A stretch of DNA of 64,000 nt from Parcubacteria group bacterium (GTDB lineage: Bacteria; Patescibacteriota; Minisyncoccia; JACPHC01): NCBI GenBank assembly GCA_016188775.1, contig JACPHC010000006.1:618-64617 (forward strand). The letters run 5' to 3'. Shown one piece after another: positions 3,822 through 24,934 of the stretch. The position numbers and the translations under genes are program-made. The notes below the pieces were generated by a model that was not told the origin of the DNA, searched no databases, and saw only the letters and a list, made by a program, of their open reading frames with translations. Numbering within the stretch: the stretch's first letter is position 1; each line of letters opens with the position of its first letter.

Positions 3822-3862
3822 CTTACTAAACTTAATTGGACGGCCGTTTAATTAGTTTAGTA
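3822..3862. promoter_or_regulatory. Copy 1 of a ~40-bp palindromic motif centred on GACGGCCGTC (CTTACTAAACTTAATTGGACGGCCGTTTAATTAGTTTAGTA)
   Basis: Seen directly. Two further copies lie at 30109-30149 and 48696-48735. The arms ACTAAAC/GTTTAGT are inverted repeats around a perfect GACGGCCGTC palindrome. Confidence 0.6.
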
Positions 3863-4011
3863 TGAATATCAATTGCTTAAGTTTAGAAAAGTTTATAAAT
3901 TAAAGAATTTACACCTTTAGCGACGATCGTAAATAAAAGTGTAAATTTCAAAAAATAAACGCATATAGAGCAATCAATGGGGAGTTGAACTCTCATAAAT
4001 TACTCTAAAAA

Positions 4012-4020
4012 TTATCCACA
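4012..4020. promoter_or_regulatory. Perfect DnaA-box consensus TTATCCACA upstream of the first gene of the T4SS-like cluster
   Basis: Exact 9-mer match. It is followed by TGTATAAT (-10-like) at 4047-4054. A single box has uncertain significance. Confidence 0.3.
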
Positions 4021-4111
4021 ATTTGTTTCTTGTTTAATTAAAATATTGTATAATACTGACACAACCGTGAATAATAATTTTTTCAACTCAAAAAAGAGGG
4101 TTATTTTGGGA

Positions 4112-5824
4112 ATGGTTTTTGTTATTTTATTTTTGGCGCTGATTGTTCCTTTAAAAACCGAGGCTTCTATATGGAATCCACTTGACAATCTTTTAGACGC
4201 TATCATAACTGCTATTGTTCAAATATCTAATTTTCTAGTTGGATGGATTCTCTATATTATTCTTACCCCATTAGGCATATTCGCCGGCTGGCTTCTTGAT
4301 CCGACACTGATCCCGATTATTAACAGCGATGTTGTGACAACCGGTTATAAAATCACTTTGGATTTAGCCAATATGTTTTTTGTTTTGATTATTATAGTTA
4401 TCGCGTTCGCGACAATTTTTCGAATTAAAAGTTATGGCGCGGAGAGTCTTTTACCGAACTTAATTATCACCGCGGTCCTAATTAATTTCAGTAAAGTGAT
4501 TGCCGGAGTGGTCATTGATTTTTCCAATGTTTTAACCTCTTTTTTCCTCGAGAGAATATCAAGCAATTCCAGCGGCGTCTCGGCATCAATCGCCAACGCT
4601 CTTAAAGCGGCGGCTCTTTTTCCCACAAATCTTCCATCGGGCACCGGATCAAGTTTAGCGGGCTGGTTGAATGTTCTGGGCGGAATAATAGTCACTTGGA
4701 TTTTCGCTTTAGTAACCATCGCCGTCTTTGCTTCTTTTGTAGTTTTATTATTTTCCAGGGTTTTTGCCTTATGGATGCTTCTGATCGGAGCGCCTTTGGC
4801 TTGGCTTTTTCGAATCTTGCCTAAAACCCAAAAATATTGGAATGATTGGTGGGAAAAATTAATCAGCTGGTCTTTTGTCGCTCCTGTTTTTTCTTTTTTT
4901 CTTTATTTAGCCCTTAAAACCAATCAAACCATGAAAGATGCGCTTGGAAATCCACTTACGGACAACACTGGAGCGGGCGCTGAATTATCAAAAACTAATC
5001 CTATGCTTGAGCCGACTTTTTTGCTCAATTACATAGTTTTAATAGGCCTTCTATTGTATGGCGTTAAAACTTCCAAAAAAATGGCCGATTATATGCCTCA
5101 AGCCTTGTCAGCCGGCTGGCAAAGCGCCAAGGGCGGTTTTAAAAAAGCCGCTGGCATAAAAAGCCTTCAAGAACGAGCTAAAGAATTTGGGGGGAAAGTT
5201 GGCGAAAAAACCTCGCAAATCGCTTCTCGTTTACCCGGGGCCGGTCTTGTTTTACCCAAAGCCGGGGAAATAAGAACTGCCAGAAAAATAGAAAAAGGAG
5301 CCAAAAAAACGGGAGAACAGGCCAAACAAGAAATGGATGTTATTAAAAAACGAGCTCGAGGAGCAGTGTTAACCAAGGAAGAACAAAAAATAGCCGATAA
5401 TCCTCAATATTTAGCAAAAACGGAACAAACAGCGTTAGAAAAACAAGCTCGAGGAGCAGTGATGACTCCGGAAGAACAAAAAACAGCTGCAAGGCTTGAT
5501 GCTGCTTACGCTACCAGCGATCTTGATTTTGGCCGTAATGTTATTGAACAAAAAGCAAAAAATATCGCCCAACGCAGCACTATTGGTCAAAGATTAAAAA
5601 TAAGAGCCAAAAGCGTAATACGCCCGTCGGGAATCCTTACACCCACTCCCACCGCTGATGAGGCCGCGCTTCTTTTAGCCACTTCGCATAAAACTTATAA
5701 AAAAGAGTTTGAAAAACGCAAAAAAATAAATCAATGGCCTTATTCTGAAGGACAAAAAACTGCAAAAGAAAAAGCTTTGGAATCACTGGAAGAGTATTTT
5801 AAACCGCCGCCAACTTCGCCATAA
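4112..5824 (+). CDS. Polytopic membrane protein resembling VirB6/TrbL/PrgH-like T4SS channel components, with a Lys-rich hydrophilic C-terminal domain
   Basis: It has about 6 or more predicted TM helices after a signal-like N-terminus, then a roughly 200-aa charged tail. The start at ATG 4112 is preferred because it is preceded by AAGAGGG (Shine-Dalgarno). The ORF-track start 4046 is the alternative. The family call rests on topology and context only. Confidence 0.4.
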   Translation: MVFVILFLALIVPLKTEASIWNPLDNLLDAIITAIVQISNFLVGWILYIILTPLGIFAGWLLDPTLIPIINSDVVTTGYKITLDLANMFFVLIIIVIAFATIFRIKSYGAESLLPNLIITAVLINFSKVIAGVVIDFSNVLTSFFLERISSNSSGVSASIANALKAAALFPTNLPSGTGSSLAGWLNVLGGIIVTWIFALVTIAVFASFVVLLFSRVFALWMLLIGAPLAWLFRILPKTQKYWNDWWEKLISWSFVAPVFSFFLYLALKTNQTMKDALGNPLTDNTGAGAELSKTNPMLEPTFLLNYIVLIGLLLYGVKTSKKMADYMPQALSAGWQSAKGGFKKAAGIKSLQERAKEFGGKVGEKTSQIASRLPGAGLVLPKAGEIRTARKIEKGAKKTGEQAKQEMDVIKKRARGAVLTKEEQKIADNPQYLAKTEQTALEKQARGAVMTPEEQKTAARLDAAYATSDLDFGRNVIEQKAKNIAQRSTIGQRLKIRAKSVIRPSGILTPTPTADEAALLLATSHKTYKKEFEKRKKINQWPYSEGQKTAKEKALESLEEYFKPPPTSP

Positions 5825-5852
5825 CAAAAATTATTAAAACTAACTACTAAAT

Positions 5853-6248
5853 ATGCCAATACCAAACACAATTTACGGCTTAAGTCATTTTTCCAGCGAC
5901 CAAATTAAAGCTTTGGCCCATGCCTTGGAGGCCGAGGAATTAAATCCGTACACTATTTACAAACAAAGACCGGACGCTCTGCCGGAACGGGAACTGGAAG
6001 ATGTTATAAAAAAAATGAGTCCGGAAGAAGCCTCGGACATTGTGCCGGACAGTTTTAGCGGAGAGAAAGGGATAGAAATAGTTTCTTCCCTGTCTCTGCG
6101 CCAACTTGAAAAAATAGGCTCGGATGGCGACCCGATTCTAAAAGAAACGATTAAAATCAGTCTGGAAAAAGCTATTGAAAAAAAACCGGGCGATTTCAAT
6201 CTTCAAAAAATTTTAAATTATATTAATAACAGCCCAGCCTGGCAATAA
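5853..6248 (+). CDS. Hypothetical acidic soluble protein
   Basis: 131-aa ORF with no recognisable motif. Confidence 0.45.
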   Translation: MPIPNTIYGLSHFSSDQIKALAHALEAEELNPYTIYKQRPDALPERELEDVIKKMSPEEASDIVPDSFSGEKGIEIVSSLSLRQLEKIGSDGDPILKETIKISLEKAIEKKPGDFNLQKILNYINNSPAWQ

Positions 6249-6278
6249 AACTATGCCTATCCAAAAACTCAACCAACT

Positions 6279-6369
6279 GTCATTGCGAGGAGCGGAGCGA
6301 CGAAACAATCTAATAAATATTAGTTCAAATTATGGGATTGCCACGCTCCTTTCAGTCTCTCGCGATGAC
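6279..6369. repeat. Copy B of the family-1 miniature palindromic element
   Basis: CTGTCATTGCGAGGAGCGGAGCGACGAAACAATC ... GATTGCCACGCTCCTTTCAGTCTCTCGCGATGAC. Its right-half core is the reverse complement of the core of the third and fourth tandem units of copy A. Confidence 0.75.
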
Positions 6370-6400
6370 AAAAAAGTTTTCGAACGGACTAAATAAAACT

Positions 6401-7090
6401 ATGGAAGAATTAAAAAAATCCAATCCTTTAATAGCCGAGGAAGAAGAAATGGTTCCCAAACCATCCAAGGATCAAATTGTCTTATGGGAAGAATTGGAAA
6501 AAAGAGTGCCGGAGGAAAATGTCATTGTCTGGACCGAAGGATTCTACCAACTGCCCCAAAATATCCGCGATTATTTAGCTCGCGAAGATACGAGTTTAAA
6601 AATAAAAAATCTCGCCATAAATTTTAATTTCAATCAAGCCGAAACCCAATATTTAAACCGCCTGATTAACGGCTTTTTTATCGGCGCTATTAATCCCTCC
6701 AATTTCTTTGATTATCTCAAAAAGGGCTTTAAAAATTTAAAGGACGAGGAAGTCAAAAAATTAGCGGAAAATATCCGCGAGGCCATATTTCTGCCTCAAA
6801 GAGATTTTCTCCGTCAAAAACATAATTTGGAAGAAACTAAAACTTCTCAACCGGCTCCGGCGCCAAAACAATTGCCAATTGATCAAGATATTTATCGGGA
6901 ACCGGCCGACGAAGAGCCAAAAATCCCGCCTCAAGCCAACGGCGTGGTTTTTCTCTCCGATGACATAAAAATCAAACTGGATGATCCTCAACGTCTGAAA
7001 AAATTAGGCAAATTTTTAATTGATCTGGGTGAAAAAACTATTGAAAAAAAGAGGAAAAAAGACGCGGAAAACGAGATTTTTAAAATTTAA
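6401..7090 (+). CDS. Hypothetical Lys/Glu-rich soluble protein
   Basis: The ORF-track start at 6332 lies inside repeat copy B and is probably not used. In-frame ATGs at 6365 and 6401 are more plausible. Confidence 0.45.
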   Translation: MEELKKSNPLIAEEEEMVPKPSKDQIVLWEELEKRVPEENVIVWTEGFYQLPQNIRDYLAREDTSLKIKNLAINFNFNQAETQYLNRLINGFFIGAINPSNFFDYLKKGFKNLKDEEVKKLAENIREAIFLPQRDFLRQKHNLEETKTSQPAPAPKQLPIDQDIYREPADEEPKIPPQANGVVFLSDDIKIKLDDPQRLKKLGKFLIDLGEKTIEKKRKKDAENEIFKI

Positions 7091-7102
7091 TTTTTTATAA
7101 AT

Positions 7103-7573
7103 ATGGCGCATTCTCCAATAGACAAGGCGGCATTAGCGATTGCCCAGCGGATAGCTAATAAATTAAATAATTTAATTGAACAAGGCCATGATACAATAGC
7201 TTTTTTATTAGCTATTCTTTTAGCTTTTTTGAAAGACGGAATGGATGTGATTCTAGATTTGATGCTGATAGGAGAAATTCCAATTATTGGTCAAATGCCA
7301 GGAATTCTAATTTCCGCGATTTTAATGTATTTTTTATGGGGGAAAGGATGGTTTAATACGACAAAAGTAAAAATAATATTATGGGGACTTGGGGTTTTTG
7401 CTGATAATCTGCCTTTTTTGATAAATGATTTACCATTAACTGTCTTGACAGTTTTGATGGCTTGGCATGTTGTGCGTAAAAGAGCCAAAAAAGCCAAAAA
7501 AGATTTAGACAAATTAAGTAAAAAAACAATAAAAGAATTAGAACAAATTGATAAAGAATTAGAAACAGCTTAA
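7103..7573 (+). CDS. Small integral membrane protein (3-4 TM helices) with a Lys-rich C-terminus
   Basis: 156 aa, hydrophobic core. No family assignment is possible by eye. Confidence 0.45.
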   Translation: MAHSPIDKAALAIAQRIANKLNNLIEQGHDTIAFLLAILLAFLKDGMDVILDLMLIGEIPIIGQMPGILISAILMYFLWGKGWFNTTKVKIILWGLGVFADNLPFLINDLPLTVLTVLMAWHVVRKRAKKAKKDLDKLSKKTIKELEQIDKELETA

Positions 7574-7623
7574 TAAATATAGAGCGATTAATAAAAAAAT
7601 GATATAATAAAAAATACTAATCA

Positions 7624-8511
7624 ATGAGATTAGCTTTAAATCCAAAAATAAATTCAATGATTTTACCGGCGGTTAGCCTGCTGACCGTTTTAGGTATTGG
7701 TTTAATCGGTTTTGGTGTTTTTAAATCCGGCAATAAATTGGAAATAGAATTTAAAAACGGCCGGCTGACTCCTCAAAGCACCCAAAATATCAGCGAAATT
7801 TTTTCTCAAAATCTCAAAAAGGCGATTTCCCAAAACGTCGCTCCGGAAAAAATTTTTGAAAACACAAAGTTGAATTTCAAAAGCGACGAAACTTTAACCG
7901 CGCTTTTATCTCAAAATTTTCTTTCCGAAATAACCAAAAAAAATCCGGCCCAAATTCAAGATCCGTCTTTTATAGAAGCTCTTAAAGATTCATCTGATCC
8001 GGCAAGTTTTCTGGGAATCAGCGATTTAAATCCGGCTTTTGCCGATAAATCAAAAGAAATTATGAATTCATTGATTTACAACCCGCCGAGCTTTACTACC
8101 AAAAATAACGCCAGTTTGAAAGATAAAGTAAATTATTTCTCCGCTCTTAAAAATTTAATCTTGCCGTTTCAAAAAACAAACCCTTTAATTATCCAGGCAG
8201 CGCTGCAAACAAAAAATTACGCCGAACTGGATAGACGGATTGAAAAATTAAAAACCTCTCTCTTGAGCTTTGAAAAATTAGAAGCGCCGAAAGAATACAT
8301 CGATCTTCATAAAAAAATAATCAGTTTTAACGGCTATCAAATCAACGTTTTTGAAGAAATAAAAAAAGCCGGGGAAAATAACGATCCTTTAAAGCAATAT
8401 CTGATTATAATTTCTTACGATGAAATTTTAAATAATAATTATAAAACAACTATTTTAGAAACAATAAACGAAGCTAAAAAAATGATTAGCGAGATTAAGA
8501 AACTAAAATGA
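7624..8511 (+). CDS. Bitopic membrane protein, with an N-terminal TM helix and a ~250-aa extracytoplasmic domain. The topology is VirB8-like
   Basis: 295 aa with one TM helix near the N-terminus. The VirB8 comparison rests on topology and context only. Confidence 0.4.
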   Translation: MRLALNPKINSMILPAVSLLTVLGIGLIGFGVFKSGNKLEIEFKNGRLTPQSTQNISEIFSQNLKKAISQNVAPEKIFENTKLNFKSDETLTALLSQNFLSEITKKNPAQIQDPSFIEALKDSSDPASFLGISDLNPAFADKSKEIMNSLIYNPPSFTTKNNASLKDKVNYFSALKNLILPFQKTNPLIIQAALQTKNYAELDRRIEKLKTSLLSFEKLEAPKEYIDLHKKIISFNGYQINVFEEIKKAGENNDPLKQYLIIISYDEILNNNYKTTILETINEAKKMISEIKKLK

Positions 8512-10535
8512 AAAAACTCCTCACAATTATATTAATTTTTTCTCTCATCGTTTCTTCTTTTATTTTCAGCTTTCAAAAAACTTACGCTGGAGAACCTGTG
8601 ACCGATCCCCTCACTGAATTTATGACAGGTCTCACGTCTTTTGTAACAACTGTCTCGTCAATATATGACCAGATAGCTAACGAAGATAGCATTTTTGCCA
8701 CAGCGGCTAAATACGCATTATTGGTAGCTGGAACGCTTATTATGAACCAGATAACTAATGATATGATAAATTGGATTAACAACGGATTTGACGGCAAGCC
8801 GGGTTTTGTTCAAAATCCTGAAGGATTAATTAAAAAAGTCGGAGACCAAGCGGCCGGTTCTATTTTAACGACTCTGGCCGGCAATCAACTCTGCGAGCCG
8901 TTCAAATTAAATATTCAGATACCGTTGCAGGAAGTCTCGTCTTTTAACGATGAAGTTCAATGCACCCTCACGAAAATAGTTGAAAATATTGATTCTTTTT
9001 ATGACGATTTTTCAACCGGCGGCTGGCTCGCTTGGGTTCATTTAACCAAACCGCAAAATAACGCCATTAGCTCTTATTTAATGATCCAAGATGAATCGGC
9101 GCGCCAAGAGAGCAAATCCACAAAAAATACTTTTGACGAAATAAACCGCAATCAAGGATATTATTCCGTCAAAGAATGCAGCGCGAGCTTTGATTCTATA
9201 GATGTCCCCACCGGAGAAAAAAACGGAGTCAGAACGTTAACCGGTAAAACCCAAGAGAATATCTGGGATCAAGTCGCTAAAGCTGTCACTGATAGCGGCG
9301 GTGAAACGGTTTATCGCATAAAAGGTGAAATTCAATGTTCAACTAAAACTCCGGCGCAAGTTGTTTCAGGCACCTTAAATGAAACTATTACCGGAGGAAA
9401 TAAAATAATGCAACAATCAATATCCGATTTAACCGCGTCTTTAGGACTGCAAGGCAGTTTTTTTCAACCATTTATTACAGCGATGTTGAACGCCTTAATT
9501 AATAAAGGCGTTATGGAAGGATTGGCCGCGGCCCAAACAGCTTTAACCAACACGGAATCTTCGCCAATTAACTCTGTTCCCTCCGACGAAGCGGTTGATG
9601 ACTCTACTTTAGTAGACACAACCAGATCCGATATAGCCCAAGTTGAAAGCATTAAAAGATCCCTTAATCCGGGTTTAAAACAACAACTTTCATTAGTCTC
9701 TGACGCTTTAATTCCCGCAATTGATGTGGCCGGCCAAATTCAACAAACCGAAATTAATATATTAGAAACTGAAGGAAAAATGGCCGCTATAAACGAGGCT
9801 TTAGTTAAAGGCGGTCGAGCCGCGTCCTGCGTTTTTCCAACTGATACTACTGACAGAACAATTACCACTATTATAACTTCTACCAATGCCACTTATCCCA
9901 ATGCCACTGCTCTTGATGATAAAATGGCAAGAACTATAGACGTTAATGTTACTGACAGTAAATATGGAAAAGGAACGCCAGCTACAACTTTGCGTATTAT
10001 CACCGCCACTGCTCAAACAACCGATCTCTTCGGCAATACTTTTGTTAATGTAGGCGTCAATTCAGTGACAGCAATTTCGTCTCCTCAATATCAAACTCCT
10101 ATTGACGCTGCGCTTAGCAATTATACCACTGAAAAAACCAGCGCTGATAACGCTTTAAATAATATTGATCCGACAATGACTAGTCTTCAAATTTATTTAG
10201 ACAACGCTGATTCATTTATTGAAATTGGCAACGCCAATGTTCAAGCCGGGACCACAATTGCCCAATCTGACAAAGATACGCTCCAGCAAAATAAAGATAA
10301 TGCCCTTAATAGTCTAGCGCCGATTATAAGCCCAGAAACTGCCAATGATTTTTCCAGTTATAATTCAAAAATTTCCGATTTAAACGTGGAGACGTTTGAC
10401 CGCGCCGACAATATTAATCGCGAAGTCGGCTCATCCAGTTCAACCGATCCCCTAACTCTTTACGGACAATTAAACGACGCCAGCGGCGCTCTCGCTTCAA
10501 TTCAATCTTCTTACGCCGCTTGCGCCGCCTTTTAA
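8508..10535 (+). CDS. Large secreted Thr/Ser/Asn-rich protein, a candidate surface, adhesin or pilus-associated protein
   Basis: 675 aa with a cleavable-type signal peptide (MKKLLTIILIFSLIVSSFIFSFQKTYA). Its start overlaps the upstream stop by 4 nt, suggesting translational coupling. Confidence 0.5.
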   Translation: MKKLLTIILIFSLIVSSFIFSFQKTYAGEPVTDPLTEFMTGLTSFVTTVSSIYDQIANEDSIFATAAKYALLVAGTLIMNQITNDMINWINNGFDGKPGFVQNPEGLIKKVGDQAAGSILTTLAGNQLCEPFKLNIQIPLQEVSSFNDEVQCTLTKIVENIDSFYDDFSTGGWLAWVHLTKPQNNAISSYLMIQDESARQESKSTKNTFDEINRNQGYYSVKECSASFDSIDVPTGEKNGVRTLTGKTQENIWDQVAKAVTDSGGETVYRIKGEIQCSTKTPAQVVSGTLNETITGGNKIMQQSISDLTASLGLQGSFFQPFITAMLNALINKGVMEGLAAAQTALTNTESSPINSVPSDEAVDDSTLVDTTRSDIAQVESIKRSLNPGLKQQLSLVSDALIPAIDVAGQIQQTEINILETEGKMAAINEALVKGGRAASCVFPTDTTDRTITTIITSTNATYPNATALDDKMARTIDVNVTDSKYGKGTPATTLRIITATAQTTDLFGNTFVNVGVNSVTAISSPQYQTPIDAALSNYTTEKTSADNALNNIDPTMTSLQIYLDNADSFIEIGNANVQAGTTIAQSDKDTLQQNKDNALNSLAPIISPETANDFSSYNSKISDLNVETFDRADNINREVGSSSSTDPLTLYGQLNDASGALASIQSSYAACAAF

Positions 10536-10664
10536 ATTAGAAAATTAATCCCGTTAAAAATCGCGGATACGTAATTAAAATATGATATATATAAAAAATA
10601 AAATTTATAAATAATAAAATAGAGCCTCGGATGCTTTTTGCGCCCGCATTCTATTTTTAACGGG

Positions 10665-11387
10665 ATGAAAAAATTTTTTCTTACAATTTTCATTTCTTTG
10701 TTAATGCCTTTTTTAACATTGGCTATCGTAGCTAAATCAAAACCTCAACTTAATCAGCCGCTTCAAATCATTCTTTCTTGGACGGTTCCCTCTTCAATAC
10801 CTTCTCTTTACAAAGGCCGAGCCTTGCCGACTTTAAATTCATTTGTCCAAGTCAATGCCGATGCAATAAATGGAACGGATAAAAAAGAAAATCTCATCTT
10901 TAAATGGTTTGTTGATAACGACTATCAGCCTTTAGTTTCGGGCCGAAATAAAAATAATTTTAAATTTCAAATTAAAAAAGGGGTGGACGACCTTTATAAT
11001 ATCAAGCTGGAACTTCGCAAAACCGACTCCAGTCAAACGCTCTTGGCGACCAAAAATATTTTTATTCCCATCACCAATCCGGAAATTATCTTTTATAAAT
11101 TAAATAATGAAACGGCGATTAATAAAGAAATAAATATGTCCATTGGCCAATCTATTGATATAACAGCTGAACCTTATTTTTTCAACTCGCCGAAAGGAAA
11201 TTTAAAATATGAATGGACGATAAACGGAGGAAAAGCGAAAACGGAAAAACCGGATATTTTGAATTTAACGGCTCCGGAAGGAAAACTGCTCTCTCCGGTC
11301 TTAAAATCCATTGGGCTTAAAATCAGCAAAACCTTTTTTCCGGCCCAGCAAACGGAAGAATCTTTTAATTTAAAAATTTCCCAATGA
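10665..11387 (+). CDS. Secreted hypothetical protein
   Basis: Signal peptide MKKFFLTIFISLLMPFLTLAIVA. The start at ATG 10665 is preferred over the track start at 10638. Confidence 0.5.
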   Translation: MKKFFLTIFISLLMPFLTLAIVAKSKPQLNQPLQIILSWTVPSSIPSLYKGRALPTLNSFVQVNADAINGTDKKENLIFKWFVDNDYQPLVSGRNKNNFKFQIKKGVDDLYNIKLELRKTDSSQTLLATKNIFIPITNPEIIFYKLNNETAINKEINMSIGQSIDITAEPYFFNSPKGNLKYEWTINGGKAKTEKPDILNLTAPEGKLLSPVLKSIGLKISKTFFPAQQTEESFNLKISQ

Positions 11388-12271
11388 AAAAAATCATTAT
11401 TGTTGTTATATTTTTAGTTTTTTTCGTTAATTTAGCTCAAGCGGTTGAATTGACCTATCCGTCCGTTGGGCAAGGCATAACCACTCCCGCCGGCGCCACC
11501 AGCGATTTAGGAAATTATCTCGCATATGTTTACACTCTCGGCTTAGGCGCTTCCGGCATTGCCGCTTTGGCAATGATTGTCTGGAGCGGCATCAAATATA
11601 TGACTTCGGAAATTGTCACTTCCAAAGAAGAAGCGCGCAAAGATATTCAAGCCGCTCTTTTTGGACTGGCTTTGCTTCTGGGCGCTTATTTGATCTTAAA
11701 CACCATTAATCCTAATTTAGTCAGCTTAACTAATCCTGAGCTTGAAAGGCCGGCTGCGGTTCAAGGATATTGCGGCACGTCCGGACAAAAACAATCTGAA
11801 TTTACTCCGCCAAGTTGTTGCTCTGGCTATCAATCTGATAATGAAGGTATATGTAGATACGTCGGTCTAACTGAAGGCAGCGCTTGCCCTGCCACGATAA
11901 CAAACGGCGTTAACTGCTCAAGCGACCAGGTTTGCTCTAATAACAAATGCAAAGTTAAAGCATCATTCAATGAAACCTGCAGCGATGTGAAAAATAGTTC
12001 AGATTGCCTTTCAGGCCTCACCTGCATATCAACAGGGATAATTGGCGGTAATTGTCATAAGCCAACGGGCCAAAGAGTCGAAAGCGAATATTGCGGAGAT
12101 AATATTAATAGTTGCGGTTCCGGATTAAAATGTTCTGCCGGTATTTGCGTGGTCAGTACTTCTACCACAGCAAAAACAACTAACGAAGCCTGCACCAGTG
12201 GTCCTGAATGCCAAAGCAATCGATGCGAATACCCTGATAGCAGATCAACTAGTAGAACGTGCCAACCTTAA
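11384..12271 (+). CDS. VirB2/TrbC-like T4SS pilin domain (signal peptide plus two hydrophobic helices) fused to a ~180-aa Cys-rich C-terminal extension
   Basis: Signal MKKIIIVVIFLVFFVNLAQA. Helix 1 is LGASGIAALAMIVWSGIKYM, followed by a polar turn TSEIVTSKEEARKDIQ, then helix 2 AALFGLALLLGAYLILNTINP. The C-terminus has four C-x(5-7)-C-x-SG-x-C-x(3-8)-C-like modules. Confidence 0.5.
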   Translation: MKKIIIVVIFLVFFVNLAQAVELTYPSVGQGITTPAGATSDLGNYLAYVYTLGLGASGIAALAMIVWSGIKYMTSEIVTSKEEARKDIQAALFGLALLLGAYLILNTINPNLVSLTNPELERPAAVQGYCGTSGQKQSEFTPPSCCSGYQSDNEGICRYVGLTEGSACPATITNGVNCSSDQVCSNNKCKVKASFNETCSDVKNSSDCLSGLTCISTGIIGGNCHKPTGQRVESEYCGDNINSCGSGLKCSAGICVVSTSTTAKTTNEACTSGPECQSNRCEYPDSRSTSRTCQP

Positions 12272-12277
12272 TAGACT

Positions 12278-12676
12278 ATGCAATTTCAAGTCCCCCAATT
12301 CATTGAAGTGGAAGATAAAATCATCGGCCCTCTCACGCTCAAACAATTTCTTTATATCGCCGCTCCCGTAGGCTTTACTTTTCTTTTAAAATTTTTCTTA
12401 AGTCTGCCGTTTATGATTCTTTTAGGCGGGCCGACCGTGCTTTTCGGTTTCGCTCTGGCGTTTTACAAACCCGGCGGCCGGCCTTTTATCGTAATGATAA
12501 AATCTTTTTTTAATTTTCTGTCCAAGCCCCGTCTTTATATGTGGCAGCATCCGCGAACAAAAGAAATCACTCTGGAAAAAGAACTTATTCCCCAAACTAA
12601 AAGATTAAAAGAGCAAAAATGGAAATTGAACATATTTTCCGCCAAAGGCGGATCCGCCTCTGGCGGGAAAAAATAA
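12278..12676 (+). CDS. PrgI/VirB3-like small membrane protein of Gram-positive-type T4SS
   Basis: 132 aa. The N-terminus MQFQVPQFIEVEDKIIGPLTLKQFLYI is followed by two TM helices, and the gene sits immediately upstream of VirB4. The family is recognised from memory. Confidence 0.5.
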   Translation: MQFQVPQFIEVEDKIIGPLTLKQFLYIAAPVGFTFLLKFFLSLPFMILLGGPTVLFGFALAFYKPGGRPFIVMIKSFFNFLSKPRLYMWQHPRTKEITLEKELIPQTKRLKEQKWKLNIFSAKGGSASGGKK

Positions 12677-12798
12677 ATTTTGACAATTTGTTATTTAAAT
12701 TAAAATTAAAGTATGGCACCCGCCTTCGCTAAAAGCTTCGGCGGATGCTCATAATTGTAGCGAAATTTATTTCGCTATAATTATAAATTTCGACAATT

Positions 12799-13449
12799 AT
12801 GGCAAAACCTGAAGCGTCGACTCAACAATTTGTTATAATAGATCAAATCCGCGATAACGTGGTGTTTTTAAAAGACGGACAAATGCGCGGAATTTTAGCC
12901 GCCTCTTCTCAAAATTTCGCCCTAAAAACCGAAGAAGAACAGCAAGCGACTCTTTATCAATTCCAAAATTTTCTAAACACTTTGGATTTTTCTTTGCAAA
13001 TTGTCGTTCATTCCCGCAAATTGGATATCGCTCCTTATCTTTCCTATTTGGAAGAGGCGACCAGAAAAGAAGACAACGAACTGATGAAAATTCAAACACA
13101 AGAATACACGGAATTTATCCGTTCTTTTGTCCAAGGCTCAACGATTATGACTAAAAGTTTTTATGTTGTGGTGCCATTCGCTTTACTGGCCGGCGCGAAA
13201 AAAACCGGCGGAATTTTGAGCCTTTTCAAAACCGCGGCTGCTCCGGCCAAAACCTTGGCTAAAATGTCCGAAAAAGAATTCCAGGCTTATAAAAACCAGC
13301 TGGATCAAAGAATGGATCAGGTGGCGGCCGGGCTGACCAGGACCGGCACTCGGACCATTTCGCTCGACGCCGACAGCCTGACGGAACTTTTTTATGAAAT
13401 TTATAATCCCGGCGAAGTCAAACAAAAACCGAGAGAAATACCGGAGTAA
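12799..13449 (+). CDS. N-terminal ~216 aa of a Gram-positive-type VirB4 (TcpF/PrgJ/TrsE-like), separated from the ATPase body by an in-frame 219-bp insert
   Basis: The motif FVIIDQIRDNVVFLKDGQMRGILAASSQNFALKTEEEQQATLYQFQNFLNTLDFSLQIVV matches the conserved start of VirB4-like proteins. It is in the same reading frame as 13669..15444. Confidence 0.5.
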   Translation: MAKPEASTQQFVIIDQIRDNVVFLKDGQMRGILAASSQNFALKTEEEQQATLYQFQNFLNTLDFSLQIVVHSRKLDIAPYLSYLEEATRKEDNELMKIQTQEYTEFIRSFVQGSTIMTKSFYVVVPFALLAGAKKTGGILSLFKTAAAPAKTLAKMSEKEFQAYKNQLDQRMDQVAAGLTRTGTRTISLDADSLTELFYEIYNPGEVKQKPREIPE

Positions 13450-13485
13450 TGAATGGACATATAATAAAAATATTCTACAATCGAA

Positions 13486-13567
13486 GTCATTGCGAGGCGA
13501 TTAAATCGCCGAAGCAATCTCTCGACAATTGAGATTACTTCGTCGGCTTATGCCTCCTCATAATGAC
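13486..13567. repeat. Copy C of the family-1 miniature palindromic element, lying inside the gap that splits VirB4
   Basis: GTCATTGCGAGGCGATTAAATCGCCGAAGCAATC ... CTCATAATGAC. Confidence 0.7.
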
Positions 13568-13668
13568 AAACAAATTATTTATTTGATTTGAGAATAGTAA
13601 TAGTTACTTATAGGATATTTGGCGAATGCATAATAATGCTATCAAATCTCACAATTAAAATTTGAACC

Positions 13669-15444
13669 ATGACTAATAATACTGAAACAATCCTAACTGA
13701 AGGAACGGTTTCAATCAAAGATATTATCGCCCCTTCGGCTCTGGAAGTTAACGCCAATTTTATAAAAATCGGCGGCAAAATCGCCCGCACTTTTTTTGTT
13801 ATTTCCTACCCAAAATTTTTAACCACGAATTGGCTTTCGCCGATTATAAATCTGGATAAAATTTTGGATGTTTCTTTATTTTTTCACCCGGTTGACACCG
13901 CTATAGTTTTAAAAAACCTCCGCAAAAAAGCCGCCCAAGTCGAATCCCAATTAATGGCTCGGGAAGAAAAAGGCCAAACCCGGGATCCGGTGCTGGAAGC
14001 CGCCATTGCCAACATTGAAGAATTAAGGGATCGGTTGTCGCAGGCCACGGAAAAACTTTTTAAATTTGGACTTTATTTTACTTTATGGGGAGAATCTTTG
14101 GAAGAATTGGAAAAAACAGAAAATGAAATTCGGACAATGCTGGAAGGCCGACTGATAATGACCAAAACAGCCACTTATCAGCAGGAAGAAGGATTTAATT
14201 CAGCTCTGCCAACCAATGACGACCAACTCCAAATCACTATGCCTATGAACACCGACACCATTTCCAGCGCTTTTCCTTTTGTTTCTTTTGACCTAACTTC
14301 CAATAAAGGCATACTTTACGGCATCAACCGGCACAATAACAGCCTGATAATTTTTGACCGGTTTTCTTTGCCTAATTACAACTCTCTGATTTTTGCCACC
14401 TCGGGCGCGGGCAAATCTTACACCACCAAACTAGAAGTTTTGCGAGCAATGATGCTGGGCTCGGACGTGATGATTTTAGATCCGGAAAATGAATACGAAT
14501 ATCTATCCCAGACAGTCGGAGGAAGTTTTTTTCGCATATCTCTGACGTCTAAACATCATATTAATCCTTTTGATCTGCCAAGACCGCGATCGGACGAAAA
14601 TCCGGCTGATGTTTTAAGATCCAATATTATTAATCTGGTCGGCCTGCTTCGCATTATGCTGGGCGGCCTGAGCCCGGAAGAAGACGGCTTGATTGACCGG
14701 GCCATCACTGAAACTTACGCCGCGCGAAACATTACCGTGGAAAGCGATTTTTCCAACGCCGAGCCGCCTTTGATGTCCGATCTTCAAACAGTTTTAGAAA
14801 GCCTGGAAGGCGGAAAAAATTTAGCCACGAGACTGGAAAAATACACCCGAGGCAGTTACGCCGGATTTCTTAATCAGCCGTCCAATGTTGATATCGGCAA
14901 CCGCCTGGTTGTTTTTTCTATTCGGGATATGGAAGACGAGCTCCGTCCAATCGCGATGTATATTATTCTCCATTTCATCTGGAACGAAATCCGTCGGGAA
15001 ATTAAAAAACGAATTTTAATAGTGGATGAAGCCTGGGTTTTAATGAAACATGAAGACGGCGCTTCTTTCCTTTTTGGGATTGCCAAAAGAGGAAGGAAGT
15101 ATTATTTGGGACTTACCATTATCACGCAAGACGTGGCGGATCTTATGAATAGCCCTTACGGTAAGCCCATTGTCACCAATTCCTCTATGCAACTTTTGTT
15201 AAAACAATCGCCGGCCACGATTGAAACGGTTGTTAAAACATTTAATCTGACGGATGAAGAAAAATTCCTGCTGCTGGAATCAAACGTCGGGGAAGGAATA
15301 TTTTTTGCCGGACTCAAGCACGCGGCTATAAAAGTAATCGCCTCCTACGCCGAAGATCAAATTATCACATCGGATCCTTCTCAACTACTGGCGATTCAAA
15401 AAGCCAAAGAGCAATTAGTCCAAGCTGAAGAAAAAGTGATTTAA
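13669..15444 (+). CDS. VirB4/TrbE/CagE-family T4SS ATPase (central and C-terminal parts)
   Basis: Walker A is LIFATSGAGKSYT and Walker B is RILIVDEAW. The N-terminal region IIAPSALEV..IGGKIARTFFVISYPKFL..WLSPII is typical of VirB4. Walker A sits at residue ~243 of this ORF. That only fits the usual position if the 216 aa of the upstream ORF are added. Confidence 0.85.
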   Translation: MTNNTETILTEGTVSIKDIIAPSALEVNANFIKIGGKIARTFFVISYPKFLTTNWLSPIINLDKILDVSLFFHPVDTAIVLKNLRKKAAQVESQLMAREEKGQTRDPVLEAAIANIEELRDRLSQATEKLFKFGLYFTLWGESLEELEKTENEIRTMLEGRLIMTKTATYQQEEGFNSALPTNDDQLQITMPMNTDTISSAFPFVSFDLTSNKGILYGINRHNNSLIIFDRFSLPNYNSLIFATSGAGKSYTTKLEVLRAMMLGSDVMILDPENEYEYLSQTVGGSFFRISLTSKHHINPFDLPRPRSDENPADVLRSNIINLVGLLRIMLGGLSPEEDGLIDRAITETYAARNITVESDFSNAEPPLMSDLQTVLESLEGGKNLATRLEKYTRGSYAGFLNQPSNVDIGNRLVVFSIRDMEDELRPIAMYIILHFIWNEIRREIKKRILIVDEAWVLMKHEDGASFLFGIAKRGRKYYLGLTIITQDVADLMNSPYGKPIVTNSSMQLLLKQSPATIETVVKTFNLTDEEKFLLLESNVGEGIFFAGLKHAAIKVIASYAEDQIITSDPSQLLAIQKAKEQLVQAEEKVI

Positions 15445-15455
15445 AAAAATAATTT

Positions 15456-16580
15456 ATGTCTAGACGCAATCTAATAATTTTAATATCGGCGGTGATTTTG
15501 ATAATAATAACTATTATTTTAATCCTGACAGTTTTTTTGCGCCGGCCCGGCCCATTACCAACGCCCGCGCCTTCAGGAGGGGGGTTTATTATCCCCGAAG
15601 AACCGACTCTTCCAACGGTTTCTAAAGAAAAGGTTCGCGCTTTGAGCGAAAATCCGGCCGGCGCTTTGCATATAGTCAATGATCGGCCGCGATTCTGGGA
15701 TAAAGAAACCGGCTTCATTTTCGAAACCAGCCCTGACGGCGCCGAACCAAAAAGAATTTCTCGCGATCAACTGGCCGATGTTGTCAATATCCTGCCGCTT
15801 TCCGACAATGAAAAAATTGTTTTGGCGGAGAAAGAAAATAACCAAATAAAATATTCAATCTACAACCTTGTTTCTGGGACAAAAAATCTTCTGCCAAACG
15901 GGATTAAATCAATCGCCGTTTCACCAGACGGGAAAAAAATCGCTCTCTATTTAACTGACGGCCAAAAAAATAAACTGGTTATTACCGACGCGGACGCCAT
16001 AAACGCTAAAACAGTCGCGGAACTTAACCTGGATAAAATAAATCTCTCCTGGACCAACGCCAATATGATTTTAATGGCTGAACCGGCCTCAGGTCTGGCC
16101 TCAAGCAGTATTTTAAGTTTTAACGCGGAAAAAAAGCAACCGGATTTGATTGTTGATAATTTATTCGGACTGGAAGCTATTACCTCTTCTGATTTCTCAA
16201 AAATGATTTATTCAAAAACTAATCAAGCCGGCGGCGGCCTTTCTCTTAATCTTCTGGATTTAAGCACAAGAGAAGCGAAAAGCCTGGCTATCGGCACTTT
16301 CGCTTCCAAATGCGTTTTTTCGAAATCTAATCGAGAAATTTTTTGCGCCGTTCCGTCTGAACTGAAATCTTCAATATTGCCGGATGATTACTATAAAGGA
16401 ATATTGAGAACCAATGATTCTTTATTTAAAATCAACCTGGAAACAGCGGAATTTAGCGAAATAATAAACGGCTTTGAACGTCCGTCTTTCGATATTGTCA
16501 AACCTCTTTTAAATTCGTCAGAAGACTTTTTATTCTTTATAAATAATTTGGACGACAAGCCTTACTCAATTAAACTTTAA
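15456..16580 (+). CDS. Membrane-anchored protein with a TolB-like/beta-propeller-like extracytoplasmic domain
   Basis: N-terminal TM helix, then repeated SPDGKKIALY-type blades. Confidence 0.4.
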   Translation: MSRRNLIILISAVILIIITIILILTVFLRRPGPLPTPAPSGGGFIIPEEPTLPTVSKEKVRALSENPAGALHIVNDRPRFWDKETGFIFETSPDGAEPKRISRDQLADVVNILPLSDNEKIVLAEKENNQIKYSIYNLVSGTKNLLPNGIKSIAVSPDGKKIALYLTDGQKNKLVITDADAINAKTVAELNLDKINLSWTNANMILMAEPASGLASSSILSFNAEKKQPDLIVDNLFGLEAITSSDFSKMIYSKTNQAGGGLSLNLLDLSTREAKSLAIGTFASKCVFSKSNREIFCAVPSELKSSILPDDYYKGILRTNDSLFKINLETAEFSEIINGFERPSFDIVKPLLNSSEDFLFFINNLDDKPYSIKL

Positions 16581-17022
16581 TCACGGGTTTAATAATAACA
16601 TAACGCTCCGGCTCATTTCCTTCGCTTTCGGTTGTCAAATCAACTTCTCCGGCCAGCGCCAAATGAGCCGTTCTTCTCTCATAAGCGGACATTGAAGGCA
16701 AAGCAACGACTTTTTTAAAAAAGCGCGCTTCTTTCGCTTTTTCCAAAACCATTTCTTTAATCTCTTTCTCTCTGAATTCGCGCCAATTATTCACGTCAAT
16801 TATAAATGAAGGAGCTTCGCCCATCCGTTTCCGAATCACCAGATAAATCAGGTGATTAAAAGCCGCCAAAACTTCCGGCTTATTATTTGTCCAGCGATCG
16901 AGATCGCCGATAAAAATATTATATTTATTTTTATCGGCGTCTTGAGATAATTCAATCGTATGCTCAAAGCCCAAAACATTGATAAATTCTCTGATTAAAT
17001 TTTTTAATTGGTCTTCGTTCAT
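16570..17022 (-). CDS. jag: Jag/KhpB-like R3H-domain RNA-binding protein
   Basis: 150 aa in the conserved position downstream of yidC. The C-terminus has R3H-like ...YERRTAHLALAGEVDLTTESEG. Confidence 0.6.
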   Translation of the reverse strand: MNEDQLKNLIREFINVLGFEHTIELSQDADKNKYNIFIGDLDRWTNNKPEVLAAFNHLIYLVIRKRMGEAPSFIIDVNNWREFREKEIKEMVLEKAKEARFFKKVVALPSMSAYERRTAHLALAGEVDLTTESEGNEPERYVIIKPVIKV

Positions 17023-17151
17023 CTCGCACGATGCAGATCGCGATCGAAAGACGCAATCCGCTTGTATTAATTTTTTATAATTTCAAATTTATAATATTCG
17101 CGTATATCCCGAGAAGAAGCGATCGCGACTTCGTACGGGATAAAACTAAAT

Positions 17152-17898
17152 TCAATTCTTCTGTATTTTAGATTCTAGATTCTGATTATTGACGTGTTTT
17201 TCTTTATAAGGAAACCGTAAGGACAGATACTGCTGTAAAATAGCAAAGAGATTAAAAGTTGTCCAGTAAAGAGCAATAGCCGCTGGCCAAGATAAAGAAA
17301 TAAAGCCGATCAGGGCCGGAAAAACATAGACCATCTGTTTGTTTAATATATTGGAAAGATCGCCGGGGCTGGTGGTTTTTTGATCTTTCGGCAACATCAT
17401 TTTTGACTGCCAAAATTGAGAAACGCCGGCTAAAGCCGCGAGCGCTATATTGCGAGTCTGACTCAAATCAATAAAGCCGAGAAAAAGGGGATTGATTTGA
17501 CCCGGATTTTTCACGAAATCGTACAAAAAATTTAAAGAAGACTGATCAAGTCCGACGCGAAAAACCTTCAAAAGAGCGAATAAAACCGGAATTTGAATCA
17601 AAATAGTTAAAAAACCGGAAAAAGGATTAACTCGATGTTCTCGATAAAGATTGAGCAATGCCCGGCTTTGTTCTTCTTTGCTTTCTTTAAAATTTTTTTG
17701 AATTTCCTTAATTTTCGGCTGCAGCAAAGTCATTTCTCTTTGTGACTTTAACGCTTTTTGAGAAAGAGGATAAAGAATCAAACGGACAAAAATTGTCAGT
17801 AAAATAATTGCCACGCCAATATCGGGAACAAGGTCGTAAAAAAATATTAATAAATTAAATAGCGGCAGAAAAAGAAAATTATTGAATAATGAAGACAT
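17152..17898 (-). CDS. yidC: Membrane protein insertase YidC/Oxa1 (short form)
   Basis: 248 aa with 5 TM helices, in the rnpA-yidC-jag context. Confidence 0.75.
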   Translation of the reverse strand: MSSLFNNFLFLPLFNLLIFFYDLVPDIGVAIILLTIFVRLILYPLSQKALKSQREMTLLQPKIKEIQKNFKESKEEQSRALLNLYREHRVNPFSGFLTILIQIPVLFALLKVFRVGLDQSSLNFLYDFVKNPGQINPLFLGFIDLSQTRNIALAALAGVSQFWQSKMMLPKDQKTTSPGDLSNILNKQMVYVFPALIGFISLSWPAAIALYWTTFNLFAILQQYLSLRFPYKEKHVNNQNLESKIQKN

Positions 17899-17906
17899 TT
17901 TTATTA

Positions 17907-18254
17907 TTAATTAATGATGTTATTTTGTTTTAAAATTAATTCAAAAGTTTTTTGAATATCTTTAAAATTTGCTTTGGCCGCTTCCGGAGTCAAGCTAATC
18001 ACAATATCGAAACTTTTTGAAAATGCGGATGATTTAAGAATCGCCCGAGCCGCTTCTCTCATCTTTCTTTTTAAGCGATTCCTTAAAGTTGATTTTTTAG
18101 ACACTTTGGTTGAAATAATAAAACCAAATCGGCTTTCCGGCAGATAATTCGGCGAATATCTTAAAATTAAAAAGCCGCTCTTAAAAATCCGACCGCGCTG
18201 AAAAACATTATCAAAATCTTTTTTTTCAGTTATCCGATTGCGTCGAGCTAACAT
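17907..18254 (-). CDS. rnpA: Ribonuclease P protein component
   Basis: 115 aa basic protein lying between rpmH and yidC. Confidence 0.75.
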   Translation of the reverse strand: MLARRNRITEKKDFDNVFQRGRIFKSGFLILRYSPNYLPESRFGFIISTKVSKKSTLRNRLKRKMREAARAILKSSAFSKSFDIVISLTPEAAKANFKDIQKTFELILKQNNIIN

Positions 18255-18389
18255 TTAAACCGTGATATTCCAGCGCCCTTTTTTCTGGCGGCGTTTTAAA
18301 ACTTTTTTACCCCCGGCCCGGCTTTTTCTTTTTAAAAATCCGTGCGTCTTTTTACGTTTTTTCTTTTTAGGCTGATAAGTAATGGACAT
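18255..18389 (-). CDS. rpmH: 50S ribosomal protein L34
   Basis: Hand translation of the minus strand gives MSITYQPKKKKRKKTHGFLKRKSRAGGKKVLKRRQKKGRWNITV. It is absent from the ORF track because it is shorter than 60 aa. Confidence 0.85.
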   Translation of the reverse strand: MSITYQPKKKKRKKTHGFLKRKSRAGGKKVLKRRQKKGRWNITV

Positions 18390-18502
18390 ATTTTAATTAT
18401 TTAATTAAGATTAGCCTAGCATTAAATTCATCAACAATCAATCCACACTTTATTCACTAAATTTATTCTTGACTATATATATTCACAGCTTATTATAAAA
18501 AT

Positions 18503-20099: not shown

Positions 20100-21200
20100 A
20101 TGGAAATAATTTGTTTGCGAGAAAATTTATTAAAAGCGATAAATCAAACGGAAAAAATTATTGGAAAAAATTTTTCTCTTCCGATTTTAAATAATCTTTA
20201 TTTTAAAACCGAAAAAGGAAGATTGAAGATTACCGCTACTAATCTCGAAATCGCTATTTCCAGCTGGGTGCCGGGAAAAATAAATGAGGAAGGAGAAACG
20301 ACTATTCCGGCGAAAATTATTTCCGGTATTATTTCCGGTCTGTCCGATGATAAAATAAACCTTAGATTTAAAGATAATTTATTAATAGTTAAAACAGATA
20401 ATTATCAGGCTCAAATTAATACTATTAACCCGAAAGAATTTCCTTTAATTCCTAAAATAAAAAGTGAAAATAAAATAAAAATTAATCAAAAAATTTTAAA
20501 AAAACATCTTTCGCGGGTTATAAAAGTCGTTAGTGAAAGCACTATTAATTCCGTTCTTTCGGGAATTTTAGTGGATAATAAAAAAAAGGAAATTAAATTT
20601 GTGGCTACGGATAGTTTTCGTCTGGCCGTCAGTATTGAAAAAAAAGAGAATGAAAATGAAGAAATTTCTTTCATTATTCCTTTTAGAACCGCGCTGGAAA
20701 TTATTAGATTAAGTTCTGACAAAGATTTTGACGTTGAAATTAATATAGGAGAAAATCAGGCGGTATTTATTTTTGAACAGTCGGAAATTATTTCCAGACT
20801 AATTGAAGGGAAATTTCCCGATTACGAAAAAATAATTCCCAATAATTTTGAAACAAAAATATTTCTTGATAAAAACGATTTTTTAAAAAATATTAAATTA
20901 GTCGGTCTATTTTCCGCCCGTCTTGGTGAAATAAAAATTAATCCTTTAAATGATAAAGAAAATCTAGAAATAAAAGCTGAAGAAAATAATTTAGGAACAA
21001 ATAAATCCGTTATTTCAGCTCAAATTCAAGGAAAAACAGAAGAAGTTGTTTTTAATTATCGTTATCTTTTAGATGGTCTTGATAATTTAGAAGAAAATAA
21101 AATTATTTTTTCTTTAAATGGAAATTCCGGCCCGTCTTATTTGAATTCATTAAATAAAGCCGATTATTTTTATCTTTTGATGCCAATTAGGAATCAATAA
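20100..21200 (+). CDS. dnaN: DNA polymerase III beta sliding clamp
   Basis: 366 aa immediately after dnaA, with a three-domain clamp-like length and pattern. Confidence 0.85.
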   Translation: MEIICLRENLLKAINQTEKIIGKNFSLPILNNLYFKTEKGRLKITATNLEIAISSWVPGKINEEGETTIPAKIISGIISGLSDDKINLRFKDNLLIVKTDNYQAQINTINPKEFPLIPKIKSENKIKINQKILKKHLSRVIKVVSESTINSVLSGILVDNKKKEIKFVATDSFRLAVSIEKKENENEEISFIIPFRTALEIIRLSSDKDFDVEINIGENQAVFIFEQSEIISRLIEGKFPDYEKIIPNNFETKIFLDKNDFLKNIKLVGLFSARLGEIKINPLNDKENLEIKAEENNLGTNKSVISAQIQGKTEEVVFNYRYLLDGLDNLEENKIIFSLNGNSGPSYLNSLNKADYFYLLMPIRNQ

Positions 21201-24831: not shown

Positions 24832-24934
24832 CTTTAATTATTATAAGCGAAAGAAAGGGGTTTTTGAAAATCGTCTTTAAAAATCCCTTTCGCTTATTTT
24901 AAAAAAATATTTCGCAAGAGGCCTATAATATTAT

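Follow-up and report, generated by a model that had tools for sequence, protein, structure and literature searches.

Gene content and layout of the cluster

The stretch of DNA analysed here, called the window, comprises 64 kb of a Parcubacteria group bacterium (assembly GCA_016188775.1, contig JACPHC010000006.1, positions 618 to 64,617) and carries a gene cluster with the components of a type IV secretion system (T4SS). Twelve consecutive open reading frames (ORFs) on the plus strand, lettered A to L, occupy positions 4046-16580 (Table 1). A first-pass annotation, made from the sequence alone, had counted eleven co-directional genes. The common direction is confirmed, and the number becomes twelve because the N-terminal domain of the VirB4 ATPase is encoded by a separate ORF, J. 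The junctions, which had been described as short or overlapping, measure from A to L 28, 83, 12, 50, -4, 102, -4, 6, 122, 219, and 11 bp; the packing is mostly tight, and the description fails for the three spacers longer than 100 bp (102, 122, and 219). K is the sole P-loop protein of the cluster, and the G+C content is like that of the rest of the window.

The window is part of a genome, and all absences reported below hold for the window. The Pfam scan covered the ORFs of at least 120 aa, leaving out shorter ones and two others, 56385-56909 (174 aa) and 61479-62099 (206 aa). The comparison set consists of 80 related loci, the best of at least 546 relatives ranked by the similarity of VirB4 (K). 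A scan for promoters and terminators was uninterpretable, with 59 promoter-like sites found versus 39.5 expected and 24 terminator-like sites versus 17.9 expected. With Rfam models, neither the cluster nor its surroundings yielded an RNA family, and the single match was a tRNA-Arg at 56139.

Table 1. Genes and sequence elements of the window, and pilin-hydrolase ORFs of related loci (TM, transmembrane; REP, repetitive extragenic palindrome; MITE, miniature inverted-repeat transposable element)
Feature	Position	Strand	Description	Basis or remark
A	4046..5824	+	VirB6/TrbL-like polytopic membrane protein (extended-VirB6 type)	topology, ortholog matches
B	5853..6248	+	soluble acidic protein, 131 aa	topology
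C	6332..7090	+	soluble protein, at most 252 aa	positional conservation, no TM segment
D	7103..7573	+	small membrane protein, 156 aa	homologs in related loci
E	7624..8511	+	bitopic protein, 295 aa, one N-terminal TM segment	topology
F	8508..10535	+	secreted or anchored protein, 675 aa	synteny, large unnamed family
G	10638..11387	+	exported protein, tandem Ig/PKD-like beta-sandwich repeats	ortholog Pfam matches
H	11384..12271	+	VirB2-like pilin	PF18895, ortholog matches, topology
I	12278..12676	+	PrgI/VirB3-like protein, two TM segments	PF12666
J	12799..13449	+	TrsD-like, VirB4 N-terminal domain as separate gene, 216 aa	PF26593, NCBIfam
K	13669..15444	+	VirB4-family ATPase, Gram-positive MPF_FATA-like type	Pfam, PDB, Walker motifs
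L	15456..16580	+	TolB-like beta-propeller, N-terminal TM anchor, last cluster gene	profile versus PDB
jag/R3H	16570..17022	-		context outside machine
yidC	17152..17898	-		context outside machine
rnpA	17907..18254	-		context outside machine
rpmH	18255..18389	-		context outside machine
dnaA	18503..19891	+		context outside machine
dnaN	20100..21200	+		context outside machine
DnaA box, perfect	4012..4020	+	TTATCCACA	sole perfect copy in window
Palindrome, near-perfect	~3823..3863		~40 nt, CTTACTAAAC-TAATTGGACGGCCGT-AAT-AGTTTAGTA	5' of cluster
REP/MITE-like element	6264..6379		termini GTCATTGCGAG...CTCGCGATGAC	B/C junction, over first ATG of ORF C
REP/MITE-like element	13486..13570			within 219-bp J/K spacer
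REP/MITE-like sites, other	1217-1426; 37885-37974; 54358-54458; 61344-61430			tandem array at 1217-1426, behind the Xer-like gene
Pilin-VanY ORFs	L054:6558-8759; L073:11783-13627; L064:12770-14425			related loci
Pilin-NlpC/P60 ORFs	L023:3479-5206; L080:4013-5620; L058:12777-14093; L044:12790-14538			related loci
Pilin-SLT_2 ORF	L074:12798-13898			related locus

Motor and channel components

The best characterized component of the cluster is K, which matches the Pfam family P-loop_TraG (1.1e-25) as well as AAA_10, TraC_F_IV, and CagE_TrbE_VirB. Among proteins of known structure, its similarity to the Thermoanaerobacter VirB4 (PDB 4AG5; 4.6e-39, 137 bits) contrasts with that to TrwK, a VirB4 of the MPF_T type (9e-6, 27 bits). 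The Walker A (ATSGAGKS) and Walker B (ILIVDE) motifs are preserved, and by these motifs K is a catalytically intact VirB4. Judged by similarity, without a tree, its closest kin are Paceibacteria VirB4 proteins, with 63-69% identity in the top 80 out of at least 546 relatives; identity to the nearest plasmid VirB4s, which belong to the CD1110 family of Firmicutes and Actinobacteria, is 28-36%. All of these top 80 are annotated as metagenome-assembled genomes of the candidate phyla radiation/Patescibacteria or as unclassified bacteria, and the relatives include Azambacteria, Tagabacteria, Giovannonibacteria, Nomurabacteria, and Paceibacterota.

J matches the TraC-like family PF26593, the NCBIfam model TrsD (2.5e-5), and the N-terminal region (positions 99-233) of VirB4_plasma, the VirB4 of a mycoplasma integrative and conjugative element (7.9e-11). 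It is found in 78-79 of the 80 related loci, always immediately 5' of VirB4. I scores 29.9 bits against PF12666, above the gathering score of 27, and is present in 75-76 of the related loci.

The assignment of A relies more on its orthologs, which occur in 63 of the 80 loci. The protein has 7-8 hydrophobic segments followed by a hydrophilic C-terminal tail of ~250 aa, and its true start is probably the TTG at 4106 or the ATG at 4113, 3' of the ribosome-binding site AAGAGGG. No Pfam match was obtained with the window protein itself, and its profile found nothing significant among the PDB sequences. TrbL/VirB6 (PF04610) was matched by four of 31 A orthologs (best 8.6e-8). A weak match was found to NCBIfam CD3337/EF1877, and hhalign of the A-family profile with R388 TrwI gave another, located where it would be expected (E 1.1e-3, at 20% probability). 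Together with the topology, these matches suggest a VirB6/TrbL-like protein. The first-pass annotation had proposed this identity, along with the PrgI/VirB3-like protein and the Gram-positive-type VirB4, and all three proposals stand; matches to T4SS families extend beyond the ATPase.

The pilin and the envelope proteins

H starts with a signal peptide, which is followed by a pilin domain of two helices (residues ~40-115) and a C-terminal tail of 180 aa with 20 cysteines. The window protein reaches the T4SS_pilin family PF18895 at E 2.7e-4, below the cut-off. Among 31 orthologs, 29 match this family and seven match TrbC/VirB2 (PF04956), in line with the VirB2/TrbC-like pilin named in the first-pass annotation. 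Orthologs were detected in 56-61 of the 80 loci. The pilin profile did not match R388 TrwL, a comparison of low power with its single-sequence template.

In eight of the ten longest H orthologs, the cysteine tail is replaced by a peptidoglycan hydrolase domain of the VanY, NlpC/P60, or SLT_2 family. The Paceibacteria ortholog is often one ORF combining T4SS_pilin with a C-terminal hydrolase or peptidase, and often a long N-terminal insert as well. Such tails may explain why these genomes need no separate VirB1-like gene, and they raise the question of whether H-family proteins polymerise. The accessible text of PMC12102498 makes no mention of VanY, NlpC, or TolB, and its words "fused" and "fusion" concern VirB3-VirB4 only.

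F belongs to a very large family without a name; the window protein is identical to an NCBI protein of a Parcubacteria group bacterium metagenome-assembled genome. Its conserved N-terminal domain (window 8625-9407, residues ~75-285; domain length ~150-250 aa) carries the motifs WINxGFxGxPxF, GGW, and NNP and a conserved cysteine, whereas the C-terminal half varies and resembles a coiled coil. Orthologs are present in 38-42 of the 80 loci and in these relatives are encoded immediately 5' of VirB6. Among 1.84 billion representatives, the N-domain family comprises 4,018 clusters (50% identity) at E<=1e-3 and 2,566 at E<=1e-10; the domain matches no Pfam model and no PDB sequence. The suggestion that this protein could be an adhesin persists as a lead, from Ig-like or discoidin C-terminal modules found in a few family members. 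A role as VirB5 analogue was rejected at the sequence level, as the F-family profile (71 sequences) aligned to R388 TrwJ with an hhalign probability of 0.3%. One of the 71 members matched DUF4141 (2.5e-5).

G probably starts at the ATG at 10665 and, from the alignment consensus, appears to lack about one of the repeats seen in its relatives of ~330 aa. Its orthologs, in 55-58 of the 80 loci, match Ig_3, PKD, PKD_3, and BiPBP_C; against the PDB, Ig-like matches were weak and none was significant. L is found in 60-61 loci, and its ortholog profile matches TolB in the PDB at 1.1e-10. With the one TM segment at residues 6-24, this supports the earlier description of a membrane-anchored beta-propeller.

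Of the remaining ORFs, B has no homolog detected in the 80 related loci. C, probably cytoplasmic and probably starting at the ATG at 6365 or 6401, has relatives in at least 15 loci (phmmer, 1.7e-10 to 1.4e-4), all between A (VirB6) and I (PrgI). In some relatives, D is encoded immediately 3' of VirB4. E has no homolog in the 80 loci and no match to the VirB8 family in Pfam; its match to DUF6376 was weak and below the cut-off (7.4e-5), and a single-sequence AlphaFold2 model predicts an all-helical fold with low confidence (predicted local distance difference test score, pLDDT, 40). The bitopic layout that had prompted a comparison with VirB8 is confirmed, and the likeness is one of topology alone.

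The accessible parts of PMC12102498 and PMC10633639 mention neither TolB-like nor F-family components. It is conceivable, although we consider it rather doubtful, that the Paceibacteria T4SS pilin is a modular carrier whose tail is swapped between peptidoglycan hydrolases and, here, four cysteine-knot-like repeats, and which together with F, G with its Ig repeats, and the TolB-like L would form an apparatus for binding and breaching the host cell wall that lacks a counterpart in conjugative T4SSs. Such an apparatus is not described in the accessible parts of the same two papers.

Position beside the replication origin

The cluster is followed by jag, yidC, rnpA, and rpmH on the minus strand and by dnaA and dnaN on the plus strand, and the 3' end of L overlaps the convergent 3' end of jag by 11 nt. 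The cumulative G-C curve has its minimum at 19552, and DnaA boxes with one mismatch lie at 19900 and 19958 in the dnaA-dnaN spacer. The replication origin is therefore located within 16570-21200, 3-4 kb past the end of the cluster, and the first-pass statement that the cluster abuts the origin genes is borne out.

This position is a conserved property of the system. In 46 of the 47 related loci that reach dnaA, the same gene set lies on the same side of dnaA and precedes jag(-), yidC(-), dnaA(+), and dnaN(+). The gene order within the cluster is rearranged in the window in comparison with the closest loci: here it runs A-B-C-D-E-F-G-H-I-J-K-L, and the usual order in relatives is F-A-(C)-I-J-K-(D)-G-H-L. 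G and H follow K in all 80 loci, and F, where detected, lies 5' of A. The cluster is situated on the lagging-strand side and is transcribed toward oriC (~19.5-20.1 kb), head-on to the replication fork. This orientation relative to dnaA is likewise kept in 46 of 47 loci. The accessible text of PMC12102498, which proposes an origin-proximal gene-dosage effect, does not mention it; the conserved head-on orientation beside oriC bears on that idea.

Gene set and position are maintained in at least 60 relatives at the species level, although their proteins are only 25-65% identical; this points to long-term purifying selection. Judged from these comparisons, the cluster is a vertically inherited chromosomal machine and not an island or mobile element. 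A decaying relic of a conjugative element, once integrated and since stripped of its DNA-processing genes, might be suspected from the tyrosine (Xer-like) recombinase at 303-1193, 3 kb 5' of the cluster, from the repeats inserted in two junctions, and from the rearranged gene order. However, the recombinase is syntenic in none of the related loci, the core ORFs are all intact, with the Walker motifs of VirB4 kept, the G+C content does not depart from that of the window, and decay agrees poorly with conservation across so many species. We regard this explanation as extremely improbable.

Absence of conjugation genes and proposed function

No Pfam match to a VirD4/TraG/TrwB coupling protein (T4CP) or to a relaxase was obtained among the scanned ORFs of the window; the ORFs left out, the two named above and those under 120 aa, are too short for VirD4 and could hide a small relaxase domain. 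The scanned ORFs likewise contain no VirB11, no match to the VirB8, VirB9, or VirB10 families, and no lysin of the lysozyme, SLT, CHAP, or NlpC type. Competence genes are absent from the cluster, from its flanks, and from the scanned ORFs in general. The two ORFs at the right-hand end of the window encode MgtC and a Trp/Tyr permease. A T2SSE-family ATPase at 27666-29324 (-) was considered as a hidden VirB11 and rejected, since it scores 480 bits as PilB and 58 bits as VirB11. It is a lone type IV pilus ATPase of the PilB type, ~8 kb past the origin on the other side, and no pilM, pilN, pilO, or pilC gene was recognised beside it among the scanned ORFs.

Related systems have been described in two recent papers. 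In Southlakia epibionticum, transposon sequencing revealed a T4SS essential for epibiotic growth (SEML1_0006-0019) by the start of the chromosome, which most resembles Gram-positive conjugative systems and possesses essential pilins without recognizable coupling or relaxase proteins (Wang 2023, PMC10633639). Among 3,035 Patescibacteria genomes, VirB4 was found in 2,417, mostly as one clade nested in MPF_FATA, with TrsD, PrgI/VirB3, VirB6, and VirB2-like pilins close to virB4 (Quinonero-Coronel 2025, PMC12102498). According to the same survey, the T4SS of Paceibacteria and Microgenomatia lies close to dnaA, dnaN, rnpA, and rpmH.

The earlier conclusion that the cluster does not look like a self-transmissible element agrees with the fixed position, the unremarkable G+C content, and the lack of a relaxase or T4CP in the scanned ORFs, where the pair of relaxase and VirD4 near the cluster was also sought in vain. 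The listed absences of VirD4, relaxase, VirB11, and lysin hold for these ORFs. The lack of a coupling protein can be stated for the window only, as VirD4-like genes occur in 2,918 of the 3,035 genomes, with only 148 of those genes near virB4 (PMC12102498). This survey, together with the conjugative (MPF_FATA) ancestry of the machine, gives some ground for functional conjugation or DNA export, for which the genome would have to encode, at other sites, the coupling protein and a relaxase too divergent to be recognised. Against this stand the rarity of relaxases (103 of 3,035 genomes) and the finding that the T4CP homologue of Southlakia is non-essential while its T4SS genes are essential (both PMC12102498). 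One fixed chromosomal site across species is, moreover, unlike a mobile element, and no relaxase was seen among the scanned ORFs of the 64 kb. Conjugation is thus a very unlikely function.

DNA uptake deserves somewhat more weight. A VirB2/3/4/6 core similar to the ComB system of H. pylori or the archaeal Ced system could take up DNA from the environment or the host and so supply nucleotides to a bacterium unable to make them. The absence of VirD4, relaxase, and VirB11 from the scanned ORFs is ComB-like, and in the class ABY1 the T4SS adjoins comF/recG/radA, with some patescibacterial VirB4s grouping with archaeal homologues (PMC12102498). However, two marks of a ComB-type system, the VirB7-VirB10 envelope core and a link to competence genes, were not seen: general Pfam scans, in which no ComB profiles were applied, gave no VirB8/9/10 match in the cluster and no competence gene among the scanned ORFs. 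Southlakia requires ComEC and type IV pili for competence; deletion of comEC left viable cells that had lost competence, with the T4SS still essential (PMC12857230). Because this deletion is viable, ComEC-dependent DNA uptake does not explain the essentiality of the T4SS. A DNA-uptake machine is, on balance, unlikely.

We therefore consider it likely that the cluster is a vertically inherited, chromosomal Patescibacteria T4SS in its Paceibacteria form, serving contact-dependent exchange with a host rather than conjugation. Host interaction is preferred over conjugation because relaxase and T4CP are missing from the scanned ORFs, the chromosomal site is fixed, and in Saccharibacteria the literature reports an essentiality independent of ComEC. 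The bacterium itself has a small genome and is probably episymbiotic. A surface or host-attachment role in such an organism was among the possibilities raised by the first-pass annotation, and our analysis favours that line.

In such a machine, the PrgI/VirB3 protein and the TrsD-like domain would tether a VirB4 hexamer to the membrane, and VirB6 would act as translocon and as the platform of pilin assembly. VirB4 would power the assembly of the VirB6-based translocon and extract the pilin H from the membrane, giving rise to a short filament or stalk on the cell surface. The envelope proteins F, G (Ig repeats), and L (TolB-like) may form or decorate a wall-spanning, host-facing part, as their synteny and export signals suggest. 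On contact, the machine might export proteins to the host cell or import macromolecules from it.

Several points weigh against this proposal. The essentiality data come from Saccharimonadia, a class other than Paceibacteria, and a distal T4CP or an unrecognised relaxase is possible, the window being part of a genome. The proposed roles of F, G, and L are deduced from synteny and from export predictions, and the AlphaFold2 model of F, from an alignment of eight sequences, is of low confidence (pLDDT 44.7). H falls below the Pfam cut-off, and its cysteine-rich tail might be incompatible with polymerisation. A single operon would have to span the three spacers longer than 100 bp and the repeats inserted at B/C and J/K.

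Relation to known secretion systems

The cluster shares with the published Patescibacteria-clade T4SS the VirB4 with adjacent TrsD-like, PrgI/VirB3, VirB6-like, and VirB2-like pilin proteins, the lack of a nearby relaxase or T4CP, and the lack of an outer-membrane core; with the Paceibacteria systems it further shares the chromosomal site beside dnaA/dnaN/rnpA/rpmH. It differs in having no lysozyme or peptidase gene, in the 20-cysteine tail of the pilin, and in the REP-like insertions in two junctions. In comparison with the Southlakia T4SS, a single pilin gene is present instead of a six-gene array. The exported Ig-like protein adjoining the cluster has as its Southlakia counterpart the PEGA-domain protein SEML1_0005.

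The conjugative MPF_FATA systems of Firmicutes and Actinobacteria, such as Prg/Pcf of pCF10, Trs of pGO1, and the CD1110 family of CTn2, are akin to the cluster in VirB4 (28-36%), in the PrgI and TrsD families, and in a monoderm architecture without VirB7/9/10. Unlike them, the window has no T4CP (PcfC/VirD4), relaxase, PrgK/TrsG-type hydrolase, or PrgB-type adhesin. It does contain a VirB2-like pilin, which those systems lack, and its cluster is fixed at oriC on the chromosome, whereas theirs are located on mobile elements.

Among diderm bacteria, ComB of H. pylori (DNA uptake) and the Ptl system of Bordetella and the VirB system of Brucella (both effector export) dispense with both the relaxase and the VirD4 coupling protein. 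They show that substrates can be moved by a VirB4-driven machine that lacks the DNA-processing module of conjugation. All three are of the MPF_T type with a VirB7-10 core, and the sequence relationship to the cluster seen here is that of the generic VirB4, VirB6, VirB3, and VirB2 families. No T4SS other than that of Patescibacteria is known to be essential for its own carrier bacterium.

Sequence motifs and repeats around the cluster

A perfect DnaA box and a palindrome 5' of the cluster had been taken to suggest tight regulation. Both elements are present, and the regulatory interpretation did not hold. The perfect box lies ~30 nt 5' of a TATAAT at 4049-4054. One such box was found versus ~0.8 expected by chance in 128 kb, as estimated from base frequencies, and 14 boxes with one mismatch versus 12.5 expected in the window. 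The 80 related loci contain 54 perfect boxes, of which 41 are situated around dnaA and none 5' of the first T4SS gene. Regulation of the T4SS through this box was rejected as unsupported, the box being at chance level and unconserved. Its 27-nt context (3997-4023) is 85% identical to 19943-19969, around a box with one mismatch between dnaA and dnaN; the likeness may be due to chance in AT-rich DNA.

The palindrome recurs at ~30108-30148, between a divergent gene pair near tsaE, and at ~48694-48733, at the 3' end of uvrB; two of the three copies are located in divergent intergenic regions. None of the 82 loci searched (the 80 related loci and two Logan contigs with an identical VirB4) contains its core. 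The palindrome may represent either an operator or a repeat specific to this genome; as an operator of the T4SS it was rejected on account of the copies at unrelated sites and the lack of any in related loci.

Other repeats were found throughout the window. The REP/MITE-like family has a length of ~90 nt and inverted termini GTCATTGCGAG...CTCGCAATGAC, and its core gave 14 matches versus 0.6 expected. All elements are intergenic, and two, at 6279-6369 and 13486-13570, fall within the T4SS cluster. The one between J and K widens that junction to 219 bp, as opposed to 5-13 bp in the relatives inspected. Among the related loci, the core motif was detected in L034 only.

A second MITE-like element of 98 nt, with inverted termini of 22 nt (AATAAGTATCCTTAGAAATTTTT...), occurs at 24750-24840, 38296-38393, and 39734-39831. 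Two direct copies (96% identical) flank a DsbD-like ORF at 38474-39715, and the third is inverted and 85-86% complementary. An inverted repeat of 191 nt (56217-56407 and 59756-59946, 99% complementary) begins right after a tRNA-Arg(CCG) gene at 56139-56213 and brackets a 3.3-kb segment. This segment encodes a surface protein of 917 aa with FN3 domains and a PQQ/BamB-like propeller, and inside the repeat pair lies a direct repeat of 117 nt (56630-56746 and 57401-57517, 98%). The segment may represent an invertible or recently duplicated cassette.

Significance

In its relaxase-free content and origin-proximal position, the cluster is a rediscovery of a system published in 2023-2025 (PMC10633639, PMC12102498). 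The window adds one more example to those catalogued in ~2,400 genomes, and the comparative by-products of the analysis are the sole parts that may be new. They and the conserved head-on orientation beside oriC may be useful to specialists of these bacteria; the by-products are the pilin-hydrolase fusions, the size of the unnamed F family, and the TolB-like component that is kept in the Paceibacteria version of the machine.

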